Shown here piece after piece: positions 33,541 to 33,584 of a stretch of DNA of 64,000 nucleotides. Below the pieces are notes generated by a model that searched no databases, was not told the origin of the DNA, and worked only from the letters and a program-made list of their open reading frames with translations. Source of the stretch: Escherichia coli (lineage in GTDB: Bacteria; Pseudomonadota; Gammaproteobacteria; Enterobacterales; Enterobacteriaceae); assembly GCF_024700885.2 (NCBI RefSeq), contig NZ_CP117016.1, one strand, 5' to 3'. The translations under genes were made by a program, and so were the position numbers. Each line of letters begins with the position of its first letter. Positions within the stretch are counted from its first letter, which is position 1.

Positions 33541-33584
33541 TCACTCCCACTCAATTATTTACGACAAGCATAACCAATTGAGTG
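33541..33584. other. Prophage left attachment junction (attL) candidate with orphan guaA 3'-end codons
   Basis: The reverse strand of 33541-33555 reads ATT GAG TGG GAG TGA (I-E-W-E-stop), the C-terminus of GMP synthase, preceded by an in-frame TAA. A 9-bp inverted repeat follows: cactcaatt (33548-33556) / aattgagtg (33576-33584). K-12 has guaA directly after yfgI. Confidence 0.45.

Follow-up and report, generated by a model that had tools for sequence, protein, structure and literature searches.

Integrases of the "epsilon15 cluster", every member of which targets the guaA 3′ flank, were described by Smyshlyaev et al., and the integrative element CMGI-3 is a guaA-targeting member of this cluster (PMC8138268). 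For the Uetakevirus vB_EcoP_ZX5, attgagtgggaatgatt, which lies 190 bp ahead of int and at the 3′ end of guaA, was reported as the core of both attP and attB; PCR and Sanger sequencing confirmed the junctions, excision to an attP circle and a restored attB was shown, and the attP sites of phiV10 and epsilon15 were found to have the same sequence (PMC9782041). A phiV10-related phage of an O103:H25 outbreak strain was reported to insert within guaA (PMC3293862). An earlier note on the DNA analyzed here, made from its letters alone, had stated that epsilon15-group phages use guaA, and these three papers bear this out with the integrase cluster, the shared 17-mer and the related phage, respectively. 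The junction that we describe below is an ordinary, previously described phage attachment site, whose att sequence was already known from this literature.

The window, as we call the whole stretch of 64,000 nt of Escherichia coli DNA that was analyzed, matches the E. coli MLI114 chromosome (NZ_CP117013.1) on its reverse strand with 100% identity, and the sequence beyond its right edge was taken from the MLI114 record. Positions 1-32900 are ordinary K-12-type backbone with purC, bamC, dapA, gcvR, bcp, hyfABCDEFGHIJR, focB, yfgO, bepA, arsC, hda, uraA, upp, purMN, ppk1, ppx, pdeF, yfgG, yfgH and yfgI; a strong negative AT skew at about 4-12 kb coincides with the hyf genes, and we assume that it comes from the composition of membrane subunits. 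The features at and around the junction are as follows (window coordinates):

32908-33447, plus strand: yfgI, the last host gene ahead of the junction (open reading frame list; RefSeq annotation of the identical MLI114 record; same order in K-12)
33488-33515, minus strand: host bidirectional yfgI/guaA terminator (B′ arm), a terminator-like hairpin from the terminator scan
33539-33555, minus strand: 17-bp att core copy, ATTGAGTGGGAGTGATT (three-way alignment; core published in PMC9782041)
33545-33555, minus strand: putative strand-exchange region, the guaA-proximal 11 bp of the core (ATTGAGTGGGA), deduced from allele segregation
33548-33556 and 33576-33584, no strand assigned: inverted repeat CACTCAATT / AATTGAGTG, 9 bp with a 19-nt spacer
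33556-33665, minus strand: P arm of the phage, from what was attP before integration; in free phiV10 it continues into the int-side arm
33556-64000, minus strand: left 30.4 kb of a 39.0-kb Uetakevirus prophage (core copies 39,024 bp apart; phage similarity)
33627-33636, minus strand: putative arm-type integrase-binding site GTGACGGTAT in the P arm (repeat count; epsilon15 annotation)
33666-34148, minus strand: Rz-like DUF2514 protein (Pfam; RefSeq annotation)
34145-34774, minus strand: GH19 endolysin (Pfam; RefSeq annotation)
34764-35072 and 35059-35463, minus strand: two holins (Pfam; RefSeq annotation)

On the minus strand, positions 33555 to 33541 read ATT GAG TGG GAG TGA (I-E-W-E-stop), which the earlier note had taken for the C-terminus of GuaA left behind at a prophage junction. 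TAA ATA precedes these codons in frame, so that the upstream frame reads ...LCLS*IIEWE* and the orphan frame comprises five sense codons; 25 nt (33516-33540) separate the yfgI-side terminator from the orphan stop codon, and the hairpin at 33488-33515 is unchanged in the K-12 attB and in every lysogen aligned. In K-12, yfgI is the convergent neighbour of guaA, whose end is spanned by ...GCTACC-ATTGAGTGGGAATGATT-TGACCCTGCAC.... In free phiV10, the match to the lysis side extends to 26718 and that to the int side begins at 26735, with an attP that reads ...CCGTAAATA-ATTGAGTGGGAATGATT-AACAGCTAAC...; epsilon15 carries the identical 17-mer, and the prophage arms are contiguous across its core as they are in phiV10. 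The alignment to an uninterrupted yfgI-guaA locus that the earlier note had proposed thus gives, with K-12, a 17-bp core, ATTGAGTGGGA[A/G]TGATT. The core ATTGAGTGGGAATGATT is made up of the final four sense codons of guaA, its stop codon and 2 further nt, and it is colinear with the window junction, where bases 33541-33555 of the copy at 33539-33555 are the orphan codons; this block of identity with attB and attP falls inside the interval of about 33535-33556 that had been predicted for the core. The window copy matches ATTGAGTGGGAATGATT at 16/17 positions (G for A at 33544) and the far copy at 17/17, and the first phage-specific base is 33556. The window junction is therefore made of P arm, core and B′ arm and the far junction of B arm, core and P′ arm, a layout that indicates conservative site-specific integration with a 17-bp common core at 33539-33555. 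The name attL, which the earlier note gave to the window junction, holds in the map order of the window and of K-12; since the ZX5 paper uses attL for the guaA-int junction (PMC9782041), the lysis-yfgI junction is attR by that convention.

The intact guaA, the integrase and the repeated core that had been expected at the far end of the prophage were all found in MLI114. Past the right edge of the window, the MLI114 record holds, in this order, early genes, an AlpA/excisionase-like HTH protein, a DUF1382 protein, the integrase, guaA and guaB, the remainder of the prophage (replication and early genes, candidate excisionase, integrase, second core and guaA) reaching up to about 8.6 kb past the window. 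The second core copy is located at the guaA stop codon, 39,024 bp from the first, or at about 72,563-72,579 in window numbering. The P4-type tyrosine integrase (416 aa) is encoded 190 bp beyond this copy and matches Arm-DNA-bind_3 (E=3.9e-20), Phage_int_M and Phage_integrase (E=1.8e-19) in Pfam and the PHROG 1 integrase family, meaning that it combines an N-terminal arm-binding domain with a catalytic tyrosine-recombinase domain, as lambda-type heterobivalent integrases do. The AlpA-like protein (82 aa; PHROG 66 at E=2e-16 and Pfam Phage_AlpA) is a candidate excisionase.

Two other readings of the junction were weighed against an integrated phage. The IEWE-stop codons could be a chance match or belong to an intact local gene, and a 15-nt motif could indeed arise by chance: the 16-mer occurs once in the window, and 4 of 100 shuffles contained a match within two mismatches. 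However, no open reading frame of at least 40 aa runs across these codons in the ORF list of the window, the in-frame TAA lies two codons upstream, and the 17-mer and its left side are colinear with the K-12 guaA-yfgI spacer, while its right side is colinear with the phiV10 attP arm. The three-way alignment of attB, attP and junction refutes this reading, which retains practically no probability. We find it just as hard to believe that the insertion truncates or inactivates guaA, or that the prophage is a decayed remnant without a matching far end. One paper does place a related phage "within the guaA gene" (PMC3293862), and degraded copies do exist in some other strains, such as E100341 with its partial portal gene, but guaA in MLI114 is full-length (525 aa, ending ...KPPATIEWE*), its C-terminal GMP_synt_C domain is complete and ends at residue 524/525, and neither a frameshift nor a premature stop was seen in it. 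The integrase is present as well, the core-to-core distance of 39,024 bp compares with a phiV10 genome of 39,104 bp, and pseudogene flags are absent from the RefSeq annotation of the MLI114 prophage. Since its core spacing is close to the phiV10 genome size and since it carries no pseudogene flags, the prophage looks intact, and guaA is undamaged by its insertion as far as can be judged from the sequence.

Altogether, we are almost certain, from these sequence comparisons, that the junction is the integrase-distal end (P-core-B′) of an apparently intact 39-kb Uetakevirus prophage of the phiV10/epsilon15 type, integrated by tyrosine-integrase recombination into the last codons of guaA. The prophage shares with phiV10 and ZX5, which also integrate at the guaA 3′ end, an identical 17-bp core, the gene order, the arm-type 10-mers and the P′ arm terminator. 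Nucleotide identity is 98.2% to phiV10 in the integrase region and 89-93% to phiV10-group phages in the lysis cassette (33666-35463, minus strand) that directly follows the junction. Over positions 40000-64000 of the window, a 24-kb segment of structural and early genes, it is about 98% (97.7-97.9% over 80-86%) to phiv142-3, PAS61, HEMP4, the O157 typing phages 9 and 10, ZX5 and phiV10. This prophage differs from phiV10 and ZX5 in the receptor-binding part of the tail fibre, in the adjacent 374-aa acyltransferase and in an orphan core that carries the host G. The Salmonella phage epsilon15 shares the 17-bp core, the target gene and the attP layout (P arm 10-mer, IHF sites, core, terminator, int), and the annotation of the MLI114 prophage names an epsilon15-type gp10 capsid staple protein; epsilon15 differs in its host, Salmonella, in a nucleotide identity of only about 81-83% in the int and lysis regions, and in a degenerate outer inverted-repeat arm (AATTCAATA). 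The attachment system resembles that of phage lambda: the integrase is heterobivalent and carries an arm-binding domain, arm-type motifs are repeated on either side of the core, and there are IHF-like sites as well as a candidate excisionase. It departs from lambda in its P4/IntSXT-type integrase, in its use of a coding gene as target, at the 3′ end, and in the transcription of int away from the core.

A low-GC module lies at 35644-39893 (GC 0.40-0.42, against about 0.50 in the rest of the prophage). It contains the gene of the 374-aa hexapeptide-repeat-type acyltransferase, on the plus strand and thus opposite to the structural genes, and a gene for a 1024-aa tail fibre with a C-terminal Peptidase_S74 chaperone domain. 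By megablast, the tail-fibre gene matches phage records over its first ~750 nt only, and neither its receptor-binding part nor the adjacent acyltransferase gene had a match in the phage collection. The Pfam Hexapep match of the acyltransferase is sub-threshold and its NCBIfam sugar O-acetyltransferase matches are all far below the cut-offs. The module is probably a swapped cassette for O-antigen recognition and modification, unlike that of phiV10. A tRNA-Arg gene (anticodon TCT) is also found within the prophage at 57570-57646 (plus strand), in reverse orientation to the structural genes on either side; the related prophages that were examined have it too, and it is annotated in the O157 typing phages 9 and 10.

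The single mismatch in the window copy of the core is informative on the position of strand exchange. Position 12 of the core is A in attP (phiV10 and epsilon15) and in the K-12 attB (GAA-TGA). In MLI114, the copy in guaA has A and the orphan copy has G, the host allele, at 33544. Among complete E. coli genomes, four lysogens carry a G orphan: MLI114, O166:H15 JNE070796, AST20 and GPEC1337. JNE070796, whose prophage has a different tail module, likewise has A in its guaA copy and G in its orphan, even if MLI114 and JNE070796 share one GuaA protein accession and their integration events may thus not be fully independent. GPEC1337 has A at an internal attP-like junction and G in its orphan, its guaA junction being outside the stretch compared; E100341, BE311, EC21Z-151 and Ec-RL2-1X are uninformative for the crossover, with A in both host and phage. 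Since the host allele remains on the yfgI side and the phage allele is found in guaA, we infer that strand exchange takes place 5′ of position 12, within ATTGAGTGGGA (33545-33555), a mapping that presumes that the G was already in the host before integration. Tyrosine recombinases use an overlap of 6-8 bp, which would not fit into the 5 bp of the core right of position 12. The phage would then have supplied at least the final A-TGA-TT of guaA, in agreement with the earlier note, which had expected a phage-supplied guaA terminus: guaA ends with the GAA-TGA of the phage, and the orphan with the GAG-TGA of the host. No convincing canonical core-type inverted repeats around an overlap of 6-8 bp were seen by eye in the 17-mer.

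This mapping would lose its basis if the G at 33544 had arisen only once the phage was integrated, by mutation of the orphan copy. As a non-coding sequence, this copy is free to drift, and the exact G-orphan junction occurs in just four complete genomes, yet the same G with the same variant of the B′ arm (TGATCCC) is found in uninterrupted sites of at least 19 genomes at 100% over 82 nt (36 genomes at ≥99%), including the O166:H15 strains JNE21-003 and JNE21-009, which share their serotype with JNE070796, and the G orphans adjoin differing prophage variants. We thus regard a later mutation as very unlikely and retain a G of host origin. The position of the crossover might also be sought in the 9-bp inverted repeat with its 19-nt spacer, which the earlier note had described as straddling it. 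The repeat itself is real: it extends to 14-nt arms with 86% complementarity and is conserved in phiV10 and in 5/5 lysogens aligned. We did not retain it as a marker of the crossover. It is found already in the attP of the free phage and so was not created by integration, and its arms each match the IHF consensus WATCAANNNNTTR at 12/13 positions, on opposite strands (33549-33561, plus; 33571-33583, minus). The GenBank record of epsilon15 has two IHF sites annotated at the equivalent positions, and the outer arm of epsilon15 keeps TCAA....TTA, the IHF consensus positions, while 3/9 bases of the inverted repeat differ. That the repeat provides the core-type binding sites of the integrase and defines the crossover seems unlikely to us: one of its arms does overlap the proposed exchange region, and a mirror-image repeat (TGAGTGGGAATGATT / AATCATTCCTATTCA, 18-nt spacer) is present on the int side of the core, but a spacing of 19 nt is much greater than the 6-8 bp overlap of tyrosine recombinases, and a perfect inverted repeat of at least 9 bp touching the core was obtained in 180 of 20,000 flank shuffles (0.9%), meaning that it is only modestly beyond what chance alone gives. 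The arms therefore look more like architectural (IHF) sites, as the consensus matches suggest, than like a crossover marker.

The second inverted repeat, at the guaA-int junction beyond the window (8936-8983 of its locus), is 15 nt long and 87% complementary, and an 18-nt stretch of attP, AATTGAGTG+GGAATGATT, is made of exactly two 9-mers, each of which has an outward inverted partner. Over 49.5 kb of MLI114 sequence at this locus, the 10-mer GTGACGGTAT is found exactly five times, always in the att/int region: once in the P arm and four times across the P′ arm and the initial 520 bp of int. With up to one mismatch, 13 matches were counted against 2.1 expected, a number that was reached in 0/100 shuffles, and the epsilon15 record labels this 10-mer as bound by the integrase. 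These copies are putative arm-type sites in the P and P′ arms.

We also looked at how often this site is occupied. A yfgI-Rz-endolysin junction (at least 80% shared) is present in 359 of 5,426 complete E. coli genomes (~6.6%). An 82-nt attB query is uninterrupted in 4547 of the 5394 genomes that match it and split into two places in 577, so that roughly 11-16% of complete E. coli genomes have an attB that is either disrupted or split. GPEC1337 (NZ_CM142779.1, 1344000-1391500) appears to be a tandem double lysogen at guaA, in which an endosialidase tail gene and lysis cassette are followed by an internal attP-like core (A), int, another full prophage copy whose endosialidase and lysis proteins are those of the first, the G orphan core and yfgI. 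The guaA prophage of E100341 (31531-33943 of its locus) has lost a large internal segment, so that part of a portal gene is joined to part of a gene downstream of it, and it also carries a YafO-type toxin module; its sequence shows that this prophage family decays in situ in some lineages.

Beyond E. coli, the 17-mer ATTGAGTGGGARTGATT was scanned over one genome per species, a design that gives examples of architecture, with at least 120 loci. About 140 matches would be expected by chance from simple arithmetic, yet 107 of the 120 among the matches listed are true guaA ends (...KPP[AG]TIEWE*), the other 13 being orphan copies. Among the matches listed, ATTGAGTGGGARTGATT stands at the guaA stop in Alpha-, Beta- and Gammaproteobacteria, Clostridia, Actinobacteria, Cyanobacteria and archaeal MAGs, and it is found even in high-GC genera such as Xanthobacter. 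At 25/120 or more of the loci listed, a co-oriented integrase homologue is found downstream, mostly 200-370 bp away, with two weaker matches ~1.0-1.3 kb downstream; most of these homologues, again among the matches listed, are 42-54% identical to the integrase of the MLI114 prophage. Such integrases downstream of guaA 17-mers agree with the published "epsilon15 cluster". Many ATTGAGTGGGARTGATT loci share conserved downstream arms (for example ...CGTCTGGCA...GGCA...) together with an integrase 200-370 bp off, and this pattern suggests that the terminal guaA codons at those loci may often be element-supplied. The guaA-targeting elements at the other 17-mer loci share the exact core with the prophage described here, but their downstream arms differ, so they are not the same element. 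GIsul2 is another integrative element that we take to belong to the "epsilon15 cluster" and to target guaA.

Integration would then proceed as follows. The phage attP and the bacterial attB share the core ATTGAGTGGGAATGATT, and the tyrosine integrase would recombine them inside it, probably with IHF-assisted bending at the inverted repeat and with the AlpA/excisionase-like protein as a candidate directionality factor. The outcome is a full-length guaA at the far junction, whose end and terminator both come from the phage, and an orphan copy of the terminal guaA codons beside yfgI; excision would yield an attP of the form ...CGTAAATA-ATTGAGTGGGA[A/G]TGATT-AACAGC.... The P′ arm of phiV10 carries AACCCTCTGTTTTTACAGAGGGTTTTT, which agrees with the host guaA/yfgI terminator, AACCCTCTGTTACTACAGAGGGTTTTT, at 25/27 nt; the prophage described here has a copy that agrees at 23/27. 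After integration, guaA transcription would thus end at the phage copy of the terminator and the late/lysis transcript of the phage at the host copy (33488-33515), while int, which is co-oriented with guaA, may be shielded from guaBA read-through by the phage terminator. A more tentative proposal, which we hold to be quite possible but somewhat short of probable, is that the Uetakevirus attP is a captured and diverged host guaA 3′ region, made of its last codons and a near-identical terminator, so that both junctions would keep a terminator and int would be insulated; the exchange would fall in the coding 11 bp, and the 17-mer would serve integrases that are 42-54% identical in Alpha-, Beta- and Gammaproteobacteria.

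For annotation, these results fix the exact left boundary of the prophage (33556) and make clear that guaA is intact although it is "interrupted". The segregation of the host allele into the orphan and of the phage allele into guaA is a new detail, and it offers a cheap, sequence-only way to narrow down the crossover for this integrase family. Allele segregation, terminator mimicry and the wide reuse of the exact core are small additions of specialist interest, and the first two leave the understanding of site-specific integration unchanged; terminator mimicry suggests a way for the phage to avoid perturbing guaBA expression.
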